A stretch of 64,000 bases of DNA. Source: a virus. Its lineage: Duplodnaviria; Caudoviricetes. Location: positions 37,214 to 101,213 of the IMG/VR virus record IMGVR_UViG_3300047545_000339; one strand, given 5' to 3'. The stretch's first letter is position 1; every line of letters starts with the position of its first letter. Shown here in pieces: positions 5,552 to 61,081 of the stretch. The notes below the pieces were generated by a model. That model saw only the letters and a list, made by a program, of their open reading frames with translations. It had not been told where the DNA came from and ran no database searches. A program made the translations under genes and the position numbers.

Positions 5552-8500
5552 TGTTTCAGTCTGAAGAATTAGACAATCATCTAAAAACATCACACACTAT
5601 TAAAACAGAATCAATTGTCTTTGCCGAATGGAATATGAATGATTCTGAAAATATTGAAAAACTAGGAAACTACAGATACAGGCCAAACACAGTAGACAAT
5701 AAGTTTTCTATAGTTCCAACTACTTATGATCCAGTAGATGACGGAGGATACTACACAGGTGCCACAGACGCAGATATAACAGTACAGTCTGGTTTTGCTG
5801 ATGAAGATCAGCCAGTATTTCTTGCAACAAGAAATGAAAAAATGAATCTTCTATATTCTTTAGAGGATTGCATTAAACCACATAGACCAAGATCTGGAAT
5901 CAATAAGTTATTATATCTAGGAGATGCAGCAAGTCAATATTTAGATATGGGCGGTAGAGATGACTCATCCCAAGAACTTTTAAATATTGCCAATAGGCCA
6001 AGATACTATATGTCATCAAGAAAAGATCCATTCAAATATTGGACTTCCTATAGAACAGAGCAAGAAAACGGGGAGCAAAAAGAATACGGAGTATCTTTTC
6101 AAACAAACTTTGGAAACATTTTTTATATCTATGATGCCGCTCCATTTGTTGTATATAAAGATTTAGTTCCTACAAATAAAATAGTCATCAAGATGCAAAC
6201 AAACGTAGGGGATGTAAACCTAGGACCATTTAGATATAACAACCAACAGTTTCAAGATCCACTTTTTGGATATGAAAATCAAACAACTCCAATCAAGTGG
6301 AGGGTAGAGGTCTTAGATGATGATAACTGGGTAGAAGCAATATCTTTTGATGCTAACTCAAGAGATGAAAATAATGAACCAGTTATTAAAAGTGATGGAT
6401 ATGTAGAGATCTCGTATGGATTACAAATTCCATTTAGATATAGAGATTCTTATGTATACGCTGGAGTTTTATCAGATGAATCTTTGCTGCCAGAACAAGC
6501 AATAGATGGAGATACATTTCTTATAAAGCAGAGCAGCAATGATAGGGGAGTTTTAAAGATCTATGATTCTGGACAATGGGAAACTTTTATTCCAGAATAT
6601 AATTGGCAATTATCTAGCCAAACAATTGATATTAGAAGCAGTGCAGTTACAGAACTTACAAATCCAGACTACTTTATTAATGAAGAAGGATTTGTTCAGT
6701 TTAGAGAGTTTCAATTCATTCGCGGTATAAGAGTTGTTGTTGAAACAATGAATAAGCCAGAATGTACATTTGATCTTATTGAGTTTTCTCCTAGATTATT
6801 TGCAAATATTTCTGATAACGTATCATCTATACAGATAACAAAAACAATGTCAGACTTAGGAAATGGATCTATTCCAGTTGGAAATATTATTGCATCCACA
6901 GGAAGCCTAGATATTTTTGATGACGATTTTTCTTTTAACAGAAACAATGTTTTTAATTTTGAAACAAATGAAGGAAGCATTGTTGCAAAATATGTTGACA
7001 AAAGAGTTAAGTTTAACTTCTATCAAGTGGTAAAAGATGTAAATAGTTTTGACTATTTTATTCCAATAAAGATAATGTATACAGATCAAATACCACCAGT
7101 ATCTCAATCTACTGGCTTGATTAATACCTCATTAAGAGACTTTTTCTTTAATCTAGAGTCATCAAAGGCTCCAGAACTATTAATGACTGATGTATCAATC
7201 AGTTATGCTGTCACACTACTTCTTGACTATATGGGCTATAGCAATTATGTATTTAAAAGAATATTAAATACTTCAGAAATAATAATCCCATTCTTTTTTG
7301 TGGCACCAGATCAAAACGTGGCAGAAGTTTTACAACAACTTGCAGTAGCATCACAGACAGCAATGTTTTTTGATGAGTACAATAACTTGGTTGTAATGTC
7401 TAAAGAATATCTTTTACCAGAAGAGGGACAGAGAGAAGTTGACTCATACCTATATGGTCAAGAAGAAGGAGAAAATCTTCCTAACATTATTAATCTCTCA
7501 TCTGAAGAAAAAAGAGTTTACAACGATGGAAGTATTAACTACACAACAAGGTATATTCAAAGAGAAATCTCTGAATACTCTCAAGCACCGTATACTGATA
7601 AATATAAAACATATGGATACAAGCCTGTTCTTCTATGGGAGGTATCGGGAAAAGAAACCCTCAGAACAAAGAATGATTTGGCTGGTCAGTCATCTGGATA
7701 TACTCTAAGCGCTGCTCCATTAAATTCTAATTTATCGGCAGATGTTCCAGTAGTTGAAAATAATCAAGTCATCAACAACATCCTTGATCTTGGAGAAAAT
7801 ATAGATGCTGGATTTGGAGGTTTGTCTTCATATCAAGGATATTTATATGCAAATGGAGAGATCATAAAGTATGATGCTATAGAATATTCAATCTCTGGAA
7901 ACCTTAATGATGGACAGTCTGGAAATCTAAGGTGGATTAGTAGCAATCAAGAATATCAAAGATATTTTTCTAAACTTCCATTTAATGGAAAGATTTATCC
8001 AACTGGAAATGTAAGAATATACTCAGAGCCAGACTATGAAACCGTTAATGGTATAACTCAAATGAAAAATGGTGCGGTAAAAAAGCACGGTAGAGGACAG
8101 TTTGGTACACCTATAACTAGTCATGGAGCAGGGTTAAACGATTATTGGTCAAGCGATGATAATGTTTTTGGCTGTGTGCAAGAGTCAAAAGAATATCTTT
8201 TTAATACAGACCAATATATTAATTATCCAGAAACACAAAAGGATATTAAGGCTGGAAAAACTAAAGAAATTTCTGGCTTAGGATTTTTTAATGCAGATGT
8301 TCGTGCAGAAAACTCTACAAGAAATGGAATAATTAAGAACTTTAGAGCAAATAAGTATTACACAGAAAGAGAAGTTAATTACTTTAGTACTGCAAGAACA
8401 GGAACGATGCAGTCTTCTGCTCTAGTTTTTCAGGGTCCAGAAATTCCAAGTCAGATAAGGGCATCAGACTTTGTATCGTATGTCTATAAAGATCTATCTT

Positions 8501-34912: not shown

Positions 34913-35120
34913 TAGTCTAAATAAAATGGAAAAAATTGTGAGCGAATCATCTGATCTAGAATGGGATGGATGGAATGTAGTGAAATATACACCATCTCAT
35001 AATGCAATGCTTTCATCGGATGGAGCATATAAGCAAGGACAATGGTTTAAGAAGAAGGTCTTTCCAATAACAGAACATGGGTGGGATATTCCAGAAAGCT
35101 TAGGAAGTAAATATGCATAA
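34902..35120 (+). CDS. Hypothetical protein
   Basis: 'WDGW' 72 aa coupled ORF. Confidence 0.55.
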   Translation: MFIDSLNKMEKIVSESSDLEWDGWNVVKYTPSHNAMLSSDGAYKQGQWFKKKVFPITEHGWDIPESLGSKYA

Positions 35121-35394
35121 ATGGAAAGATCAAGCAAAATGTTTAGGAATGGACACTAATTTATTTTTTGACTCTTATGAAGAGGATAAATTTTTAGCAG
35201 GAAGTATAGATAAACTGTGCCAGTCATGCCCGATCAACAGTAAATGTTTTGCAGTGGGGGTTTCTGGAAAAGAATGGGGAGTCCATGGAGGTGTATACTT
35301 GAAAGATGGTATGATAGATAAAGAGCACAATAACCATAAATCAAAACAAGATTGGTTTGAAACTTGGAAATCTCTTACTATGGAGTCATCATGA
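35113..35394 (+). CDS. whiB: WhiB-family Fe-S transcription factor
   Basis: 'W..QAKC...FF...CQSCP....C...WGVHGG'. Confidence 0.85.
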   Translation: MHKWKDQAKCLGMDTNLFFDSYEEDKFLAGSIDKLCQSCPINSKCFAVGVSGKEWGVHGGVYLKDGMIDKEHNNHKSKQDWFETWKSLTMESS

Positions 35395-49488: not shown

Positions 49489-51204
49489 TCAGATTTCATC
49501 TTGATCCTTTAAGATAGATAAAACATCATCATATATTTCTTCTAGTGAACCATATGCAACATCTGTTGAAATTCCTAGACCTTCGCACAAAAGTAAATAG
49601 GCATCTTCAATTTCTCTTGAAGCAAGAATTCCAAGATCGTTGTCAGCAAGTGTCGCAGAGCCAGAGGATAGGCAGTATGCTAGTGCAAGTGTTGGACCTT
49701 CATCTATAATAAAATCTTGCCAACCTCTGTCTTGCAGTACCTCTCGATTGTAGTACCAAAAATCTCCCAGGATCTTGCACATATTAGAAAAGGGTGTCTT
49801 GGGCATAACGCTCGTCCTCCTGCAATCTATTTCGCTCAAACTTGATGTGCTCAGTATATTCTATAATACGATCTAATACAATATCTGGATATGCATTTAT
49901 TACTGTATAGAAAGCGACATACATTAGGTCATGGTCTCTAATTCTACCGTCACTAAATACGTCAAGGACTTTCTGTGCTGCCTTCTCGAAACGAGCGCGA
50001 TCTCCTGTATTCATAGTTCCTCCATACTAGCAGAAAGGGGGCAGAGTGTCAAGACCCTACCCCCTCTCATTTGTGAGAATTTATCGGGTGGCGATGGATG
50101 GAGCCTTACGAAGACCTGTAAGATTAACAGAATCAACAAACTTACCATTCTCATCACGAATAACTACGCGCTCTTGCTGTCCGTAGCGTGTGTCCCACTT
50201 CTCAAGGTAGGTGAACTTCTTTGCCATATTTTTCTCCTTAGTTAGGTGTAATCAGATATATTTTATACTACAATTAAACAGTTGTCAAGTACTTTGAGAA
50301 CCTATTTACAAAATCCTCAAGACCCATAGCAAACTTGGGGGTTCGATTAAGAAAATCAGTATTTGTGGTATTCCAATCTGCCTCATAGAGAGAAACAGCC
50401 TGAGCCTCCCAATCAACAATGGGAACAGAATGCTCATTGTCTCCGAATGAAGTAGAGATACCCCAACCTGTTTCCTCATTCCACTCATCACCAATGATTT
50501 GTGAAATACAAATTCTTGTTGCATATGACTCATCTTCCCAACGTGGACGAGCCTTATTGATGGCGGTAGCCAGAGTATTCATCATACCCTCGCCTGCCCA
50601 ATGTCCATACAGAAAAATAATAGATCCATCTGCCTGACGGAATCCAAAGTTTGCACGATCACCCATATTATTCCTTTGATAGTAGTTAGGTAAAACTTAT
50701 TATAAAACTATTCAATTGTCAAGGGTTAATCTTCTATAACTTCCCCCAAATTTAGTTCTTCTTCCAATTTGCAGTCATGACAGTAGAGGTATGCGGCAGT
50801 GACCTCAAGGATTTCTTTAGCATCCTGCTCAATTGTTTCAGCATATAAATGTCCATTAATTTCAACTATCTCTGTGATATACCTTGCATCATGGTTTTCA
50901 ATCAGAGACATGCTTGTCTTATGATCCTTGTGTGCTGCCAGGAATTCCTGGGTTCCTTCTCTGTTTGCCACGATTACTCTCCTTCTAGAATCTTAAGAAA
51001 ATCTTCTTCTTTCATCCAATACTTATCTGGGTACTCATCAAATGGTTCTGATACAGATTCCCATGAGCATATCTCACCATCTTCTACATATGAAGTAACC
51101 TCGTTAATTGTGTTTAACCACTGATTATCTACTACAAGAGTTATTCGATATGCCTTGACTTTTTCCATCATATTCCCTTCATTTGGATAATGCGATCCTA
51201 GCAC
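49489..51204 (-). other. Leftward small hypothetical ORFs (49489-49839, 49784-50014, 50081-50227, 50274-50666, 50726-50971, 50974-51204)
   Basis: RBS-bearing ORFs, several with own TTGACA..TANNNT promoter; 50274 ORF 'MGDRAN...FLYGHWAG'. Confidence 0.6.
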
Positions 51205-51224
51205 TTCATTGCTGTGTTGTCAAG

Positions 51225-51298
51225 TGGGGCATGTAGGACTCGAACCTACGACTACCGAATTATGAGTTCGGGGCTCTAACCTGCTGAGCTAATGCCCC
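51225..51298 (-). tRNA. tRNA with CAT anticodon (Ile2 or elongator Met)
   Basis: GGGGCAT/ATGCCCC acceptor, CCGAA-CT-CAT-AA-TTCGG, GTTCGAGT T-loop. Confidence 0.88.
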
Positions 51299-51304
51299 TA
51301 GGTA

Positions 51305-53687
51305 CTAGATCCTACCTAGTACGTTATGGAAGCCAAGGTCATAGACATACATCTCAGTCTGACTCCATGCACTTTCGCCATAAAACAATTTAGATACCTT
51401 CTTACCTTCAACGGGTGTATAGATAACTTTGTAAAAATCAGGGAATGGCTCTCCCCTATAGACTTCTATGTCACCATTAAATGAGTCCCCCCGCCAATGA
51501 TGGGTACAACTGTCAGTAAAGATCAAGTCCCAAAACTTAACAGACTTTACGCTAGGACGCTTAGAGGGACGGTAATGCAATGTGGAATTCATCATACTCC
51601 TCGTCATTGTTGTGTATAACGTAGTCTAGTCCATCATGGTGCAATTCGTCAAGGTACTTGAGATAATCTTTCTCAGTTGTTATATCAAATAAGAATTCAT
51701 CTCCCCATGGATCACCTATAACAGATTGGAATACCTCCCAATACCTAGTGATGTTATTTGGATCATGATGATCATTACACTCATAAATGTGTATCATCTT
51801 TATGACTCCCTATCTGATACAGCCTCAACAATTTGGTCAATTAAATAATCTGATATCTCTTCTGATCCTAAATCATTGTGTTCCATATGATTCACAATAT
51901 CAATCCACTCATCTTCTGTCAATGGGTCTGTGTCAGCAAACTGTTGTGATAAATCAGAATCCCACCAAAGAATATAAATCTCTTCATCTGGCTTGTAGTT
52001 CTTAAGCATTTCTATTGCCTTGCTAGCCTTCATAGGTCTGATCCATTCTCGTCCTGAAAGATAAGATTATTAGTTCCAAAATAATCTGCTGCATCTTCCT
52101 CAATATAGTTTACAATTGTCTCAATGTCAATGTCTGAATCTTCCATACCCTGATACTTTAGGTCTGCAACAACCTGCGGCACATCATATGTCAATAAAGC
52201 CATTGCGTTAATTCTTTTAGGTAAATTATTGCTGTTCGTCATAAAAATAATCACCATTCTCATCTGTATGCAAAACAAAATCTATACCGTCAGACATAAG
52301 GTTGTCAAGGTATGTTTCCAATTTTTCTTTATTTTCTAAGGTACTGATGAATGACTCAGTTTCCTCATCAATAAGGATGTTATAGACTTCGTAGTAAATA
52401 TCACCGCGACCTGAGTCCATTTCATAAATATGAATCATTGTGACTTTCTCCATTGTTCTTCAGCATAATCAAAATCAAATTCCAATTGCTCGTAGTTCAC
52501 TAAACCTCCTCTGTTGGATTATTGCGATCATACCACTCATCTAGCATTTCCACAAGCCCCCACAGAATGCTGTCTTCATCATTCCAAATAAGATTAATTA
52601 ACTCCAATCTTTGTTTGTTTAGTAATTCAGGATCAACATTTCTAAATAGAACGGTACGCACTATGCTTCCTCAATTGTATATACTTCTACATTTGTAAAC
52701 TCATACGTCAAACCCTCGGACATAACTCCCGTGGTATCTGTAAAGAGTTCCAAAGCCATTTCTCTTGCATCTTCTGGACTATCTGCCTCAATGAGAAAAC
52801 TGTCATCAAAGGTAGCGGTTAAATAGGTTTGATATAACATTATGCCTCCTGAAAGTTGTAGTAGTACCTTATACCATCATGCTCATTAAAGTCAAGTGAT
52901 CCACGCACACCGTCTTCCTTGCGTTCTACGATAGCCCAACCCATAGCAAAGCCCTTGACTGTGTATTTATCTAACATTTCATCTTTGGTAAGCATCTCTT
53001 CCACCTCTTCATTATCGTCAATTAGAATATCATGGAACTCATTCTCATTCCAAGGAACCTCGCAGATAAAGTATCCTAATCTATTTACAAATGAATAACC
53101 ATTGGAGATGAGTGTCTGACCTTCGTCACCCTCCAACAATGTCCAGACAAAATTGTCGGGGGTAGACTGAACAAACTCCACCTCTTCCCCATATGTCTCA
53201 AACATAGTTCCATTCCAAGATGCATTGGAATCTAGATGATTAGTCTTAGGCTTATAGGTTTCTAGCCATTCATCTTCAGTCATTATGCCTCCTCAGCATC
53301 AATACTAAGATCATATTGGAAGATATCTACTTCCCAGTCATCTGCACCACGATCAGAGAAACTAAACTCAATATGATCCTCAATGTCATTGATCTCTGCG
53401 TCAAGGGGCATCTCAATATTTCCACGGTATACAACATGAATCTCCACAGCATACTGCTTAGTAAGAGATATGTCAAGCATATCTGCAATAACTGTTATGT
53501 CAGTAGGAATATATTCTTCTACTTCATACATACTTTTGATATGTTCTTTGACATAGTAAATCTTTGTCGTTGCCTCAAGAAGTTGTTTTCGGTATCCAGA
53601 TATTTGATCGTCTTTGCTTATTAAAGTTTTTTCTAGTAATTCTATCTTAGCAATCAAATCATTACGATCTTTGGCGGTATCTAACAT
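51305..53687 (-). other. Leftward array of small acidic hypothetical ORFs (incl. 51561-51797, 51800-52033, 52226-52453, 52840-53283, 53283-53687)
   Basis: Coupled acidic ORFs; 51561 and 52226 ORFs both contain 'MIHIYE'. Confidence 0.55.
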
Positions 53688-53860
53688 AACTCTCCTTCAT
53701 TAGATGGTAAACCAACCCTATAACAGAATATAAAAAATGTCAAGCAAAAATTGGCGATTTTTTGGGAAAGTTCTTAATGGTTCGTAAATGATTATTTATT
53801 TATATTTATATAAGAAATAGGCCCGGCCCGCAGCTGCCTATTTTGTCAAGTGATGGGGGG

Positions 53861-53888
53861 TGAGCAGTTTAGACACATGCTCAGGTGT
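53861..53888 (-). ncRNA. Predicted compact H-type pseudoknot 3' of the DUF932 gene
   Basis: Minus strand ACAC-C-UGAGCA-U-GUGU-CUAAAC-UGCUCA: S1 ACAC/GUGU, S2 UGAGCA/UGCUCA. Confidence 0.5.
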
Positions 53889-53894
53889 TTTGAT

Positions 53895-54890
53895 TTACGC
53901 GAACGCGACTGTGTTTACAGTTTCCAACATTTTATTCTTTGTTGAGTTAGTCACTGCATCGAAACCACTAGCAGCAGCAAGGACAGACTCTGCATTACCA
54001 CCGCGAGGATTGCGATACCAGTCTAGTCGTTCTGTCATTGCGTTGTAAGCACCCCACGCAGTGCCCTTGATGTTTACGCATGTCTCACCAAAGTAGATAC
54101 TGTTTAGCGTATCAATTTTGTTTTCCCACTTTGTGAGAGCACCCTTGACATCTTCCTCAGGCTTTGGATAAACAGCAGTGATGATCTCGAAGAATTGCTT
54201 GTCGCTGATTTCTTTTTCGATCATTTCGTTTGCAATCTTATCGAATTCATCAAGATACTTGTTCGCCATGCCAAGTGCCTCGCGTGCAGCCTGCACCTTG
54301 CCATTGAGCGTCTGAGTGTGACGAATGCGGAACGATTGCTTAGCACCACGACCCTTATGACCAACAGCCATGTTAAGTGTGTTCTGGCAAACAACACGAA
54401 CGGGAGTGATGCTAGCCTGAATTGCAAGTGAGCCATCGTGTGAAGTGTGGACAAGAAGATAGTTGTTCACCTTGTCACCACGACCCTTAGGATCTAGGTT
54501 GGTCTCACGATCAAGAGCGAGGGAACCAAAGACAACGGTTCCATTCTTGATTGAGCCTGCGGTTTCCCATTGTCCACCGTCAAGAAGGTTATCACCAAAC
54601 TGAAAAAGTTCTTCATTCTGGAGAACCTTGTAACGCTCGCCAACTACACCTAGAACGTCAGTCTCACCATCGAAAGGATTAGTGCGAACGGTCGCAAAGT
54701 AATCACGGTGTGATCTGCCTGGAAGTGCTAATTCCTCCACACGCACATTCCAACCTGAGAGGTGTGCTAGACTGAGCATCTCAGAAGTGGTGACAGGTTC
54801 GTCAATGACAGTGCCCAAGCCATGCCAAGCGGGTTCGCGGAGGGAAGCAAAGGAAGCCATCTCGCCGTATTGTTCTAACATGTGAGCCAT
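53895..54890 (-). CDS. DUF932-family protein
   Basis: 'MAH.LE...PAWHGLG', 'Y..LQN', 'ETAGS..G', 'SHDGS', 'TPVRVVC.NTL', 'RHT'. Confidence 0.88.
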   Translation of the reverse strand: MAHMLEQYGEMASFASLREPAWHGLGTVIDEPVTTSEMLSLAHLSGWNVRVEELALPGRSHRDYFATVRTNPFDGETDVLGVVGERYKVLQNEELFQFGDNLLDGGQWETAGSIKNGTVVFGSLALDRETNLDPKGRGDKVNNYLLVHTSHDGSLAIQASITPVRVVCQNTLNMAVGHKGRGAKQSFRIRHTQTLNGKVQAAREALGMANKYLDEFDKIANEMIEKEISDKQFFEIITAVYPKPEEDVKGALTKWENKIDTLNSIYFGETCVNIKGTAWGAYNAMTERLDWYRNPRGGNAESVLAAASGFDAVTNSTKNKMLETVNTVAFA

Positions 54891-55060
54891 ATTTTCTCCT
54901 TATTAGTAATTTATTTGATGTGATAACTATATATCCTGAGACTGACATTTGTCAATAGTTATTTAAAAAATCTACCAGTTTTTTGGTGTGGTCTTAATCA
55001 CATCGTAAAAGCTTGACAAATCTAAGATTCGGGGGCCGGGATTTTTCTGCATAAAATAAG

Positions 55061-55511
55061 AAGCCCCCCTAGCAAGGAGCAACGGTGGGTGGGGATGCTC
55101 AACTCACTAGGGGGACGTTTGTGTAGTGTTTATGTATCACAGATTCTCATGAGATCTCTCCTTCCACTACTCGCGATCCTGATGGGATTTGAACCCACGA
55201 CCTTCACCGTGACAGGGTGACGAGCACTCCGCTGCTCTACAGGACCTAGAGTGAAAGGGTATCTAGGCTTTATCCCTTTCAGTTTTACATGCAGTGAGAC
55301 AAAACATTTTTTGTCATATCTCTATTATGTTAGTACACTAGACTGCAAGTGGGGAAGCGAGTCGAACGCATGAATCCCTGATTCACACTTGCCGCAGCCC
55401 AATGGCTTTGTCTAGGTCGCATATCCCCAAGTTAGAAAATGTGGGTATAGTTTAAGATACCTGAACATCATGATTAGCATTATAACGCCGTTCGTGTATC
55501 CCCACATTTCC
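55061..55511 (-). ncRNA. Cluster of six stem-closed candidate small RNAs around tRNA-Asp
   Basis: Closing stems 55065/55114, 55123/55170, 55252/55281, 55290/55347, 55351/55428, 55435/55511; no credible ORF. Confidence 0.5.
55174..55246 (-). tRNA. tRNA-Asp(GTC)
   Basis: GGTCCTG/CAGGATC acceptor, TCACC-CT-GTC-AC-GGTGA, GTTCAAAT T-loop. Confidence 0.9.
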
Positions 55512-55546
55512 AAGCCACTATTTATTTATTTTGACATTGTATCAAA

Positions 55547-55693
55547 TTACTTGACAGTTGTCCAGCGTTCTCCGTTTACCGTCATAAGACGAACGCGAAC
55601 AGATCCTGAAGGATTCTGGACAATTTCCTGTACCGTTCCTTCGACTCCGCTCTTGAGAGTTGTGAACTGTGAGCCAACAGTGAGTGTAGACAT
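55547..55693 (-). CDS. Small beta-rich protein (not in ORF track)
   Basis: MSTLTVGSQFTTLKSGVEGTVQEIVQNPSGSVRVRL...WTTVK; GAAAGG RBS; TTGACA-N18-TAAGGT promoter. Confidence 0.65.
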   Translation of the reverse strand: MSTLTVGSQFTTLKSGVEGTVQEIVQNPSGSVRVRLMTVNGERWTTVK

Positions 55694-55783
55694 TTTGCTT
55701 CCTTTCGATTGTTTGTTTGTAGTAGAACCTTATCAGATAGGTGGGGTACTTGTCAAGGACTTTCCCCCACCGTTATCAAATTG

Positions 55784-56269
55784 TTACCAAGAGGCTTGGT
55801 AGTAGATTTCCCATTCCCAGTTATCCTCAGGAATAGTAGAGAGAACATGGTCAATCATTGTGACGGTATCTTTGAGATCTTGCATGTAGTATTCGTCAAT
55901 CTCATACCCGCCAAAGAAAAATCCTTCGACAGGTGGGAGAATGTCTCCAGCCATGGCAGGTTGAGAAACAGCGGCATTGCAAAGATTACGCAACTCTACC
56001 AATTTCTCACGCGGTACAGGAATCTCTTGGCACTCATCTACACCACCAGCCAATTCATTAACGAACCAACCATGAATAGCATTTGCCTTACGCCAATATC
56101 CAATAGGATAAGAAACACTTATACCAGAAAACTGTGAATACTTTGTCAAGTCTTTGGGAGCAATCGAGGCAATGATATCAAACTCAGGATTAATTTTGAT
56201 ATTCTCACGATCTGAATAGTCATTCTTGCTGAAGTACTTGCGAGCACTTAGATACATATCGAGTCCCAT
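55784..56269 (-). CDS. Conserved phage hypothetical protein
   Basis: 'MGLDMYL...YWRKANAIH.WF...GFFFG...Y..DL..T...YQASW'. Confidence 0.75.
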   Translation of the reverse strand: MGLDMYLSARKYFSKNDYSDRENIKINPEFDIIASIAPKDLTKYSQFSGISVSYPIGYWRKANAIHGWFVNELAGGVDECQEIPVPREKLVELRNLCNAAVSQPAMAGDILPPVEGFFFGGYEIDEYYMQDLKDTVTMIDHVLSTIPEDNWEWEIYYQASW

Positions 56270-56336
56270 TTGGAACCACCCTTTCCGTTGTTGTTAGTGA
56301 AACCCTATCATAGGGGGCTGACATTTGTCAAGACTT

Positions 56337-56537
56337 TTAGTTGTGATCTGTCTCACACAGGACAGGTATGTCTCTGTCGCCAGGTACGGTTAGAATCCTT
56401 TTAAATCCTTCATCATCTACTAGATGAATATCAACCATATCAAGACCATCTACCTTGGTAACTTCATATGTGTTTTCATTTATATAGATAACGTCATTTT
56501 CTTCTAGCCAAGCGGCTTTGATATTAGTTGTTGTCAT
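56337..56537 (-). CDS. Hypothetical protein (leaderless start MTTTNIK)
   Basis: TTGACA-N17-TATGTT-N6-ATG. Confidence 0.55.
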   Translation of the reverse strand: MTTTNIKAAWLEENDVIYINENTYEVTKVDGLDMVDIHLVDDEGFKRILTVPGDRDIPVLCETDHN

Positions 56538-56960
56538 GAATAGAACATACCATATTTTTTTACATATGTCAAGGATATGCAAAAATTGGTGATTTTTTTT
56601 ACAGGTTCTTAAATGAGTTCTTAAAAGATTGACATATACTAGGAAAGGGGTCCGGGCTTTTCACCACCAAAGATCGGCAAAATAAAACGCGGCAATCAAA
56701 AAAATAATTCCAACAATTCCCCTAGTTATTGGCAAACTGTTCACCAATCTGTTTAGAAATTTCATTGTACAAATTAATTATAGTTGTTATATCAAAATCA
56801 CCATGCTCTTGATCATGTGATCGCAAAATTTCTAACAGTGCCTCCCATGCAATTGGGGGTAGATCAATTTTCATTTTTTATTCCTTGTCAATAAATATGT
56901 CTATGATGCTGTCAATAAGAAACCCAGTTATTATTCCAAACAAAAAAGTCATGAAGTATG

Positions 56961-57515
56961 TCATGATGCACTTCCTCTCTTGACAATCCAGATCAATGCT
57001 TGAGCAGTACGAGGTGTCAATCCGAATTCATTCGCAACACTTACAACTGCCTCGCACATTTCACGGTATTGTGTTTTATTAGGTGAATCGAAAGATACGT
57101 TAGCAGCCTTGCACATCCACACATCAATGACTACCGCGTTCTCATCACCTGCAATAGCGCGAGCGAATGCGTTAGTCTTCTGACCCTTGAGCGCATCGAA
57201 TCCCAATTCCAAACTATTGTTAGCCATGGTGAGATTATTGCTTAGACCCTTGACAGGCTTACCACTTGCGAATGCATAAGCCTTGGCAACATTGGATGAC
57301 CAACGCTCACGAGGTGAGAATGCAGATACAACACTCGCACCAACTTCCAAAGACTTGCCTAGCAATTCCGCAACATCTTCCGCAACTTCTTGCGCCTCAT
57401 AGTACCAAACACTAGCAGCCTCTACTTGACCTAGCGTGGCTTGCATGATGAGCGAACGGTACGAATCTGCATAGGTGGACAATTGGACGGGGGTATCAAT
57501 GGTGAGTGTGTTCAT
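56961..57515 (-). CDS. Conserved phage protein with helical, glycosylase-like motifs
   Basis: 'WY..A', 'SAFSPR..W..N', 'G.KT.AF...I.G....VVIDVW', 'QALIW'; leaderless TTGACA..TAGGTT promoter. Confidence 0.55.
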   Translation of the reverse strand: MNTLTIDTPVQLSTYADSYRSLIMQATLGQVEAASVWYYEAQEVAEDVAELLGKSLEVGASVVSAFSPRERWSSNVAKAYAFASGKPVKGLSNNLTMANNSLELGFDALKGQKTNAFARAIAGDENAVVIDVWMCKAANVSFDSPNKTQYREMCEAVVSVANEFGLTPRTAQALIWIVKRGSAS

Positions 57516-59152
57516 GTATTTAACCTATCAGATTAGTCAGAGAATGTCAAGGACTTGTGCTTAGTTTTTCTAGAATATTTATTTTTATTTTTATGAGGCA
57601 TAGCTGCATTAGACCTTCGCAATTCCTGCCAAAATCTAATTTCTTCGCTAGTCTTTTTTCGTGCTTTCATCATGATGATAGTTTATCCTAGTTTTCTTAA
57701 ATTGTCAAGGGCTTTGGCGAATTTTTATAATGTGTCCTTAATCATACTCTAAAAGGTTGACAAGATTGAAAAATCGTGCCGGGCCCAAAAACCCTTATAT
57801 ACCAACGCTTTTCAACGATTTATTTTATACATACACTCCAATGCTTCACCCAAATACTTTTCCACTTCATTGTGATTACCATCAAATAAACTTAGCATTG
57901 CACGTTTGATATTATTCGATGCAAGAAATTCATAGTTGTTTAATTCTTTAACTGATCTCATTCATTACCTCCAAAAAATAAATTGGTCATGTTGTAATTA
58001 TCAATGCGATATCCTTTGTGTTCCATTGGATACACGTTGCAACCTTCAGACATGTCATTGATCATTTCCTCACTAGTTAGCGCAGAATCAATAAGATACA
58101 CTTCATCACTCAATGGAATAAGTGTTCCCGTTCCCTGGTGGTATATAAATAGTTTTTTCATTAGAATGGAACCTCCACAAATTGTGTTTTACCAATATAC
58201 AGTGTGCCATCATTGGCATGAAATACCTTCGATTGATCAAAGGCATTATCCTCAAATACAGAATAAATATCGAGCCAAGCGTGCTCAAAATCTAGTGACA
58301 TTTTCATTTTGATTCCTCTCGACATAGTGGCCAATGCAATGGCCGTGGTGTTGGATTCTCTCGCCAGTTCTGGCATGTTTCGCATGTTTTCATGGTTTCA
58401 CCTTAGCATAGGGGTCTGACATTAGGATACGGGGCAGGGAGTTTTCCAAGCGTTCCAAGATCCTATCTCGCAATTGATACAGCGGTAGCATTCATCGACT
58501 ACCCCAATAACATGCGTGCCAGAATAATCGGCGGTGTGCTTAGGGAGATTTTGGAGGTTAAACATTTTGATCCTTTCGATTTATAAATAAAGATTAGCAC
58601 AGGGGTCTGACATCAGGCTGCTGCGATAGCAGCCCTAGCAGCGTCTACAAAATCATAGATCCAATTCTGTAGTTGTGAATAGGTAGCAATTTCGATACGC
58701 TCAAGACTTGAGCCCTTAGCCAAGTACTGAGACTCGACCCACGCGAACGCTTCGACATCGACCATATTTTTTTCATGGTCTACCCAGGTGGTTACCTCGA
58801 AGGATACAGAATCAACGATGAATTTTTGAGTTTTCATTTTATTACCTTTCATTTATAAGATTAGATTATCATAGGGGTCTGACATTACACCAAAGACAGG
58901 TGCTTGCCAGACTCTCCAATAGTTTGGACATCAAGCACGCGACCAAAGAAGGTAGGGTGCTCGGTTGGGTCACCTGCGGTTTCTACACGCACGGTCTGAC
59001 CATTGGTAAGGGTAACTAGGTAAATAAACATTCTTTATCCTTTCGATCTAGTAACTAGATCCTATCATGGGGGTCTGACATTCACTTTCCAAAATATGTG
59101 TACAAAAGGTATCAAAACGGACATTTGTGATTGTAACGGTTTGATAACGAAG

Positions 59153-59288
59153 TTATCCACAGCTTATCCACTAAAATCTTGTCAAATCGACACACGCAGG
59201 GTTAAATGAATATTAGGTTAACAAATCTCCACAGGTTTTCCACAGGTTCTTAACGTAAGGCCTTAAAGATATCCACAAGTTATCCACA
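59153..59288 (+). promoter_or_regulatory. DnaA-box cluster 1
   Basis: TTATCCACA 59153 and 59280; TTATCCACT 59164; TTTTCCACA 59236; ATATCCACA 59269; ATCTCCACA 59225. Confidence 0.75.
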
Positions 59289-60547
59289 GCGGGACCGGGC
59301 CACTTTCCGCACATGCAAAAAACCCTTATATACCAACAACTTTTTAGATCATACTGCCTAACAAATAACATATAGCAAAAAACAAAATGAAAATAAAAAC
59401 AATAGGCAAGAAAACTCCTTTATTACCAACGGTTTTTAGGCTCGATACTTTTCTAGAAATGATTCTACTAATTCATTGGGCACATATGAATAAACTCTAG
59501 CGTCACCATCTGAATATTCTGAATAGTCTGCGAATTCTTCCATCGTCTCTATCTGGAATCTTCCACGGTATAGAAATGCTAACTCACTAGACTCTCCATG
59601 CACACAATAGTGTGAAGGACTATCTTGCACGCTTATGCTATCAGCCATTGGGTGATTGATTTTGATTCGATCATTGATCCAAAAGTATTTCACACTTCCT
59701 CCAAATAACGCAGGGTAGATCCAAGGAAGTCTAGCGCACTAGCCTTATTCTTGTCAAAAGAAAATGTGAATGCGTCTAGTTCATTGTTTAGATAGTTATA
59801 TACGTTTGCTGTATGTGAACCATTTTCCCAAACAATTTGCAAGGTAGGTGTATTGATTTGCATTAGTTAGCCTTCCATGTGTAGAGATAGTTTCCGTTTT
59901 CATCTTCGAATGGGCAACCGCTTTCCCATGCTCTTTGCCAATCTTGTGAGGCTTGATAGTCTGCACACGTTGGCTCATCTTGTGTTTCGATTGCACCTAC
60001 CGTCCCCATGATTAACAACATGAGAGCAGAGAACGCGAGCACCGCTACTGTGTTTCCACGCTTAGTTAGTTGCATTTACATACTCCCCACACTTGACGCA
60101 TTGACGCGAGACCTGATTATGGAAGGCACTCCAATTTACAGATAGAGTGACATGACGGCGGTTATCTGTGCAATACATTATGCCACGCTCATTTCTTTGA
60201 TAGACCAACCTGTATTGGTGCAACCTTGCAGAGTACCTTGCAGAATTGCGAGGGCAGTTTCGGCAGAGTGACACTCATAGGCAAACTCTTGGGTTAGACC
60301 TTCGGGGGATAGGGTTAGTATTCTCATTGATTGCATTTTATTTCCTTTGTTAGTTTGTTTATAGATTTATATTAACATGGGGGTCTGACAATTAGATCGA
60401 CCGCACCCATTTGCCATTTACATTTTCCCATGCCCCACAAGCAGGACATTCCATTGCGATACCTACAGGCTTGCCATGACCTTGGCAAGGTGTCTTTCGT
60501 TGTTTCATTTTATTACCTATCTACTAAGTTTGTGGGGGGAGAGGAAC

Positions 60548-60591
60548 GATTATTTGCTAGGCTCACCTTTCGGATTATTTGCTAGGCTCAC
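60548..60591. repeat. 19-bp perfect direct repeat x2 (GATTATTTGCTAGGCTCAC)
   Basis: Copies at 60548-60566 and 60573-60591, 6-nt linker. Confidence 0.9.
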
Positions 60592-61061
60592 GCTCTACTC
60601 TCTATTTATTTATAGTCTGAGACTACCATAGGGGGCTGACAATTGCAAGTCTATTTGTCATTTATTTGATAACGATTAAATAACGGTTATCGTTAGGTTT
60701 TCCCAAACCTCTTGAGCACAAGTGGAGCAGCGCTCACACATTGGGGTAGTCTTGACATTACCGTTAGGCAATACCTGAGAGACATTCTCTATCGCATTAT
60801 GACGAGTAGCAGAGGAGAGGCATAGGAAGCCATTGCATTTGATTGTATTGATAGTGAACATTTCTAACTTCTTTCTTTTTGTTTATCTTTTGTTATGTCT
60901 ACATACTAACATGGGGGTCTGACATTGACCGATAATAGGACACATTAGGCAACGATATCCGCAGATTAGGTGCTCGAAAAAAACTAATTCAGTTTTGTTT
61001 ATATCAAATAAAAAATTCTTTAGTTGAGTTTTATTTATTTTGCTACGGATTTCGTTGTTAT

Positions 61062-61081
61062 TTATTCACAAGTTATCCACA
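61062..61081 (+). promoter_or_regulatory. DnaA-box pair 2
   Basis: TTATTCACA 61062 and TTATCCACA 61073, 11-bp period. Confidence 0.65.

Follow-up and report, generated by a model that had tools for sequence, protein, structure and literature searches.

The final 64 kb of IMG/VR virus record IMGVR_UViG_3300047545_000339 (hereafter 'the window', a stretch of 64,000 nucleotides (nt) numbered from its first letter) carries, in an arm of minus-strand genes, nine sites of the form TGTCAG-N10-TANNNT. Our preferred hypothesis, to which we assign a probability of roughly 60%, is that the phage uses these sites to switch on small genes through PafBC, an activator belonging to its host, at sigma-A promoters of the PafBC type. 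The whole record comprises 101,213 base pairs (bp), has a guanine-plus-cytosine (GC) content of 37.6%, and is estimated to be 94% complete.

The record encodes DnaE, DnaB, primase and RecA, as well as thymidylate synthase, endonuclease VII, six transfer RNAs (tRNAs) and a WhiB-family protein of 93 amino acids (aa; window 35113-35394). Its DnaE is closest to that of Streptomyces phages such as BillNye and Wakanda (approximately 55% identity), and this kinship, together with the presence of WhiB, places the phage by its gene content among the actinophages. A nucleotide search with the promoter arm returned zero matches among cultured phages.

An Enriched Promoter-like Motif in the Minus-strand Arm

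The pattern TGTCAG-N10-TANNNT matches the window 10 times, compared to an expectation of 0.80 (standard deviation 0.84; maximum of 3 in 100 shuffles). Nine of these ten matches reside in the minus-strand arm, where all are intergenic and point in the same direction as the genes. Within this set of nine, the hexamer is always TGTCAG and the gap to the TANNNT -10 element is always 10 nt. There is a gene behind every one of the nine sites, in most cases with a ribosome-binding site, and three of the arm promoters touch or run into the stop codon of the gene before them. The remaining match in the window, at 2239, and another outside it (position 8444 of the genome) are antisense within genes and look like products of chance.

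Eight of the nine arm sites share a longer consensus composed of two A/T bases, TGTCAG, (A/C)CCCC, Y, R, TG, n and TAnnnT, which reads as a -26 element joined to a TGn extended -10 element. The -10 hexamers of this class are weak and variable (for example TAGGGT, TAAGGT and TAATCT), and seven of the sites have no -35 element. The remaining two, at 54926 and 56302, are hybrids in which TTGACA is also present at an 18-nt spacing to the -10. The 54926 site carries only TGTCAG and a TATAGT -10 besides its TTGACA, without CCCC or TGn, and is to all appearances essentially a canonical sigma-A promoter. No SOS box is found within the window, and no convincing intrinsic terminator was seen between the gene cassettes.

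An earlier note on this DNA had listed nine such minus-strand sites, had seen a -35 element at only two of them, and had likened the motif to the RecA-independent DNA damage promoter of actinobacteria. All nine sites are present at every coordinate it gave, the two -35 elements are those of the hybrids described above, and the motif with its 10-nt spacing agrees with the published consensus for that promoter (PMC8635444). The motif as it was written is thus real and enriched, but the full consensus is longer.

Correspondence with PafBC-dependent Promoters

The in vivo consensus for PafBC promoters is tGTCgg(N10)tA(N3)T, with the upstream part located at -28 to -23, an invariant GTC, and no -35 element (PMC8635444). 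Residues R46 and R50 of PafB read the GTC triplet while PafC contacts region 4 of sigma A, an arrangement called 'sigma adaptation' (PMC8635444). Activation of PafBC needs single-stranded DNA (ssDNA) bound across its WYL domains, and the activator joins only RNA polymerase that is already on such a promoter (PMC11804915). The damage induction of the Mycobacterium tuberculosis gene Rv2719c has been attributed mainly to a promoter of this kind, RecA_NDp, named as RecA-non-dependent (PMC3381160).

As far as sequence can tell, the phage sites fit this published geometry exactly. They share with the PafBC promoters (RecA-NDp, recA P1-type) of Mycobacterium and other Actinobacteria the GTC hexamer at -28 to -23, the 10-nt gap, the TANNNT element, the lack of a -35 consensus (at seven phage sites), and an A/T position followed by G/C positions after the hexamer. 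They differ in forming arrays in a lytic-type genome and in driving orphan genes rather than repair genes. Moreover, the -10 of the phage sites is extended by TGn, their hexamer is followed by an almost invariant (A/C)CCCC run, and two of them also have a -35 element.

If these sites are used as their likeness suggests, the housekeeping RNA polymerase of the host, carrying sigma A, would read them, with the -26 element (TGTCAG, A/T and a short G/C run) replacing the -35 hexamer and the TGn of the phage reinforcing the PafBC-type promoter. Host PafB would read the GTC triplet, and PafC would form a bridge to sigma region 4 by sigma adaptation. The PafBC heterodimer would be switched on by ssDNA, whose sources could include phage DNA entry, replication, recombination or host DNA breakdown. 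Seven cassettes of one or a few genes for tiny orphan proteins, plus the two hybrids, would then fire when ssDNA appears in the infected cell, and the phage would bring no activator of its own. We infer PafBC binding, dependence on ssDNA, timing and host identity from sequence features.

The Box Is Widespread among Low-GC Phage Contigs

The strict form of the box is found in no fewer than 120 contigs of IMG/VR, whose GC content is 36-43% in nearly every case; among the matches listed, this value rounds to 0.4 for 110 of 120 loci. Such low GC content in loci that carry a C-rich motif indicates that these are not chance matches. Across 1.14 Mb of related contigs there are 806 relaxed TGTCAG-N10-TANNNT sites where roughly nine would be expected, in a set whose loci had all been chosen for having one strict match or more and for which the 10-nt spacing was fixed by the construction of the search. 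Conservation among the 806 sites is limited to approximately 25 nt, encompassing the A/T tract, the hexamer, the A/T plus G/C run, the TGn and the -10, and the flanks are unconserved. In the related phage sites the TGn columns hold T in 74% and G in 82% of cases, and across the contigs with the strict box the upstream box is as conserved as the -10 itself.

A 99.6-kb relative carries ten sites in the same arm as in this phage, and one 48-kb contig carries 26 sites on one strand within 9 kb. Other phages of approximately 100 kb have 4-16 sites, with the ACCCC flavour and a mycobacterial-type TGG flavour mixed in one array. Since one and the same position holds ACCCC at some sites and a TGGGG-like run at others, we suspect that the A/T-plus-G/C run is read by DNA shape or through the minor groove.

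Arrays of this density raise the idea that the boxes serve mainly as decoys, such that replicated copies titrate PafBC away from the repair or defence genes of the host. This function would be compatible with our preferred hypothesis, and the numbers of boxes just described are what would recommend it. As the principal explanation, however, we regard it as very improbable, given that the arm sites are placed and oriented as working promoters with genes and mostly ribosome-binding sites behind them. Furthermore, since PafBC joins only polymerase on a promoter (PMC11804915), simple titration is less likely.

The distribution of phage proteins bears on what might read the box. When 2,703 open reading frames (ORFs) from 121 motif loci were clustered, no protein family proved common to all loci (the largest is present in 61 of 121), and the commonest families have no Pfam DNA-binding match. 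The lack of a family common to all motif phages argues for a host factor, one that the hosts of many unrelated phages have in common, rather than a phage-borne reader.

Several low-GC contigs with multiple PafBC-type boxes are binned in non-actinobacterial metagenome-assembled genomes (MAGs), namely L134 (Tara Red Sea, Acidiferrobacteraceae) and L130-L132. These contigs are probably mis-binned actinophage DNA, and L134 suggests that marine representatives exist.

Actinobacterial Chromosomes Carry the Same Box

A scan for the strict motif in 185,579 species genomes yielded 22 matches, against a chance estimate of 12-35. As this count is about what chance would produce, we do not treat it as evidence and have used only single matches with informative context (L126; L135 and L141; and the phage-like contigs L130-L132 and L134). 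On actinobacterial chromosomes, the box is found at classical targets of PafBC. In the Nanopelagicales MAG G004 (1.2 Mb, 44-45% GC), a LysM-domain gene divergent from lexA has a full phage-type box 36 nt ahead of its ATG. This gene is flanked by SOS boxes and occupies a position syntenic with that of M. tuberculosis Rv2719c. Most other TGTCRG-N10-TANNNT matches in this MAG fall inside genes, are as numerous as in the control, and were dismissed as chance.

Elsewhere in the family, the lexA region keeps the same architecture (A/T tract, GTC hexamer, A/T plus G/C run, TGn, -10 and spacing), and in one family genome the site is identical to phage site 58400 over 15 consecutive bases. The exact strict motif is present at the lexA region in only 3 of 28 family genomes, with the others deviating at the first or last bases and so going uncounted. 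Likewise, a TGTCRG-N10-TANNNT site stands ahead of recA in 23 of the 30 genomes from the order Nanopelagicales, where the chance of one match per 430-nt stretch is approximately 0.003. Among 21 of these recA sites, the column after the hexamer is A/T in 18 and the next two columns are G/C in all 21, as in the phage. A search of 61 genomes of the Nanopelagicales family for TGTCAGACCC-N6-TANNNT gave 20 matches versus 1 for a reversed control.

A further conserved family site follows trpD, with an identical box in three Nanopelagicaceae genomes (L241-L243; L241:1317-1522). It drives a leaderless, Cys-rich ORF of 58 aa that belongs to no family and resembles in style the tiny Cys-rich genes of the phage.

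The motif is also frequent in the Acidimicrobiales MAG G005, with 37 matches versus 13 in the control. Approximately 17 of the matches are of the phage flavour (an A-tract plus TGTCAGACCCC) and mostly have an ATG 6-10 nt past the -10; they precede recA, miaB, seven DNA methylases, a DEDDh exonuclease and other genes. The seven DNA methyltransferase genes lie on L147, L149, L150, L151, L154 and L158, behind leaderless PafBC-type promoters that have the same A-tract plus TGTCAGACCCC. These enzymes could be induced by damage or by phage, or else the contigs could be mis-binned phage DNA.

The Candidate Host Order, but Not the Phage, Encodes PafBC-like Proteins

Of 31 genomes from the order Nanopelagicales, 30 have WYL genes, mostly as tandem pairs approximately 1 kb apart. 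In G004 the two WYL genes overlap. The product of the second has an HTH_PafC domain, and that of the first aligns to the cryo-EM PafB chain 7p5x_AY (E = 4e-19) and keeps residues K5, R8, R46, R50, K52 and R56, as counted on this alignment. By contrast, no WYL, HTH_PafC, or sigma region 2 or 4 domain is found in the 101,213-bp phage record, in which the MotA and AsiA families were not searched for. No WYL domain is present in five other motif-bearing phage records, two of which are at least 90% complete.

The earlier note had seen no WYL gene in the window and had offered two possibilities, a sensor of the host or a PafBC mimic encoded by the phage. Its observation on WYL genes extends to the whole record, and the pafBC genes that it proposed to look for in the predicted host are found, as tandem pafB-pafC, in the candidate order Nanopelagicales. 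A phage without a WYL, PafC-HTH or sigma domain favours the host sensor over the mimic, and the PafB-PafC pair in the candidate order likewise supports the former.

In our view, the phage most likely infects a freshwater actinobacterium that has a low GC content and is of the Nanopelagicales type. Assignment by WhiB identity was uninformative, as the phage protein is 24-39% identical to homologs in both Nanopelagicaceae and Acidimicrobiales.

In phage T4, MotA and AsiA are phage-encoded adaptors that remodel sigma region 4, a strategy known as 'sigma appropriation'. A non-WYL adaptor or appropriation factor encoded by the phage and acting in this manner could read the box in the phage described here, in which case the likeness to PafBC boxes would reflect convergence or competition and the factor would be made first from the TTGACA promoters of the arm. 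An early factor of this sort could be expressed from the 17 canonical promoters of the arm, many small orphan proteins are candidates, and WhiB belongs to a family that binds sigma region 4. In addition, the phage box exceeds the PafBC consensus in both length and uniformity. Nevertheless, we consider this explanation quite unlikely, because no protein family is found in all motif loci and the most widespread ones have no DNA-binding match, because sigma, WYL and PafC-HTH domains are missing from the phage, and because the identical box occurs at chromosomal sites without any phage.

Three Promoter Classes and the Possible Role of the Extended -10 Element

Three classes of promoter occupy separate territories in this genome. 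The canonical class, TTGACA-N17/18-TANNNT, is dense in the minus arm from 50052 to 57708 and supplies the 17 arm promoters noted above. The TGTCAG class has its own territory at 58400-60924, apart from the other two. Finally, a bare TGnTATAAT class without an upstream box serves the structural genes of the plus strand. This segregation suggests that the phage is expressed in a three-step programme.

An alternative explanation is that the TGTCAG sites are extended -10 promoters that work independently of any activator. Sigma A would simply read TGnTAnnnT, the box would be a repressor operator or a spacer that tunes promoter strength, and PafBC would not be needed. Because the structural genes use TGnTATAAT without a box, the host polymerase evidently accepts an extended -10 that lacks a -35, and TGn is indeed present in most phage sites and few host recA sites. 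Three features make us judge this explanation to be unlikely. First, in at least 120 contigs the box is conserved like the -10 and is placed exactly where PafB reads DNA. Second, bacterial chromosomes have this box ahead of recA and of the LysM gene divergent from lexA. Third, the -10 hexamers of the boxed class are weak and variable, unlike the TATAAT of the class without a box, which suggests that they need help from an upstream element.

Our preferred hypothesis, that host PafBC acts at these promoters, also has to contend with a number of observations that weigh against it. Most host recA sites are without TGn, and in the phage this extension could give activity that is independent of PafBC, such that PafBC may boost rather than gate transcription. 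The (A/C)CCCC run is far more uniform among the phages than the PafBC consensus demands, and a nearly fixed run beyond the published consensus makes an additional or different reader possible. A small non-WYL factor shared among the phages may exist, as the related contigs are mostly covered in part. The host was assigned from GC content and promoter flavour only. Moreover, the Streptomyces phages BillNye and TunaTartare have 0 and 2 motif matches, respectively, which is at or below the control. Since these cultured relatives do not have the motif, it is not a general trait of their lineage, and we rejected the notion that it characterizes the closest cultured phages.

The order of events is subject to a similar reservation. 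The earlier note had described the genes behind the TGTCAG sites as the earliest of the phage. The 17 canonical TTGACA promoters of the arm require no activator, and they, rather than the TGTCAG class, may be the true immediate-early class.

Organization of the Arm

The promoters and the genes behind them are listed here in the direction of transcription, beginning with the most upstream promoter.

60903-60924, minus strand: PafBC-type promoter P1, with -26 box, TGn and -10, no -35
60676-60861, minus strand: gene for a 61-aa Cys-rich orphan, behind P1; no PHROG match
60620-60641, minus strand: PafBC-type promoter P2, whose TGTCAG is followed by C rather than A; a direct repeat lies in its leader of about 110 nt
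60392-60508, minus strand: gene for a 38-aa zinc-ribbon-like orphan, behind P2; no PHROG match
60369-60390, minus strand: PafBC-type promoter P3, motif match
59436-60336, minus strand: five-gene operon behind P3, with orphans of 52, about 38, 70 (membrane-like), 57 and 85 aa
59059-59080, minus strand: PafBC-type promoter P4, motif match
58885-59031, minus strand: gene for a 48-aa orphan, behind P4; stop codon reaches into the A/T tract of P5
58863-58884, minus strand: PafBC-type promoter P5, motif match
58613-58852, minus strand: gene for a 79-aa orphan, behind P5; stop codon adjoins P6
58591-58612, minus strand: PafBC-type promoter P6, motif match
58422-58565, minus strand: gene for a 47-aa Cys-rich orphan, behind P6; stop codon adjoins P7
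58400-58421, minus strand: PafBC-type promoter P7; ATG 6 nt past the -10 (58393)
58304-58393, minus strand: 29-aa CxxC peptide, first gene behind P7, predicted to be leaderless
57958-58393, minus strand: whole unit behind P7, with further small orphan genes, the last of 67 aa at 57958-58161
56302-56331, minus strand: hybrid promoter with TTGACA (56326-56331), full PafBC-type box, TGn and -10
55784-56269, minus strand: 161-aa gene behind the 56302 hybrid, phrog_7971 (function unknown)
54926-54955, minus strand: hybrid promoter with TTGACA (54950-54955), TGTCAG and TATAGT
53895-54890, minus strand: 331-aa gene behind the 54926 promoter, DUF932 / phrog_1221

A PHROG search with ten of the small proteins behind the promoters gave no match. 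At P7, the position of the ATG only 6 nt after the -10 leads us to predict a leaderless message. The short distances from -10 to ATG at P7 and at the sites in the Acidimicrobiales MAG G005 fit a transcription start site just downstream of this -10; in the PafBC class, the start is expected about 6-7 nt past that element.

Three other features of the arm were observed. The long leader of P2 contains a tandem direct repeat of approximately 19 nt on the minus strand (60545-60595). Between the two hybrid promoters, a tRNA-Asp (55173-55246) is located within a gene-free stretch of approximately 450 nt (55061-55511). Lastly, all three perfect DnaA boxes of the window (TGTGGATAA, minus strand), plus four copies with one mismatch, cluster in two stretches that hold no genes, the first (59153-59288) amid the promoter array and the second (61062-61081) immediately upstream of it. 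These clusters could be an origin that depends on host DnaA, or a sink for this protein.

Relationship to Known Systems and Implications

In their logic, the phage promoters resemble the middle promoters of T4. In both systems, an upstream box near -30 replaces the -35 element, the host -10 is kept, and the class exists beside canonical promoters. The adaptors of T4 are phage-encoded, whereas none is recognisable here and the box is used by the host itself. The early region of T4 and the host-takeover module of SPO1 are similar in another respect, as each consists of many tiny orphan genes with strong promoters of their own in one arm of the genome. Those arrays rely on canonical host -35 and -10 elements, whereas the promoters of the present phage are of a type that answers to a stress activator.

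Other WYL proteins that sense ssDNA, namely DriD of Caulobacter and CapW/BrxR of defence islands, similarly couple DNA damage or phage attack to transcription. They differ in having palindromic or direct-repeat binding sites and in operating in other hosts, and we know of no report that any of them drives phage genes. To our knowledge, PafBC and sigma adaptation have been described only at repair genes on the chromosomes of actinobacteria in culture. No account of phage promoters of this kind emerged from a search of full-text literature for PafBC together with phage, prophage or the motif.

A broader proposition is that a large, diverse guild of uncultured actinophages, from freshwater and probably also marine habitats, uses the PafBC ssDNA alarm of the host as a switch for an entire class of takeover genes, with replicated boxes also competing against repair and defence promoters of the host for PafBC-loaded polymerase. 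The very signal by which a cell is warned of damage or invasion would then turn on the genes of the invader. We put this forward only tentatively, as a possibility that we at present doubt somewhat more than we believe.

If phages do control entire arrays of genes with promoters of this type, they would exemplify a new route to viral timing, one that relies on a borrowed stress activator of the host rather than on a sigma factor or adaptor of the virus. Hundreds of natural promoter variants would then show which positions beyond GTC matter, including the A/T tract, the A/T-plus-G/C run and the TGn. Furthermore, the box would provide a marker, readable from sequence data alone, by which uncultured phages could be assigned to actinobacteria that resist cultivation, among them acI, a lineage abundant in lakes.

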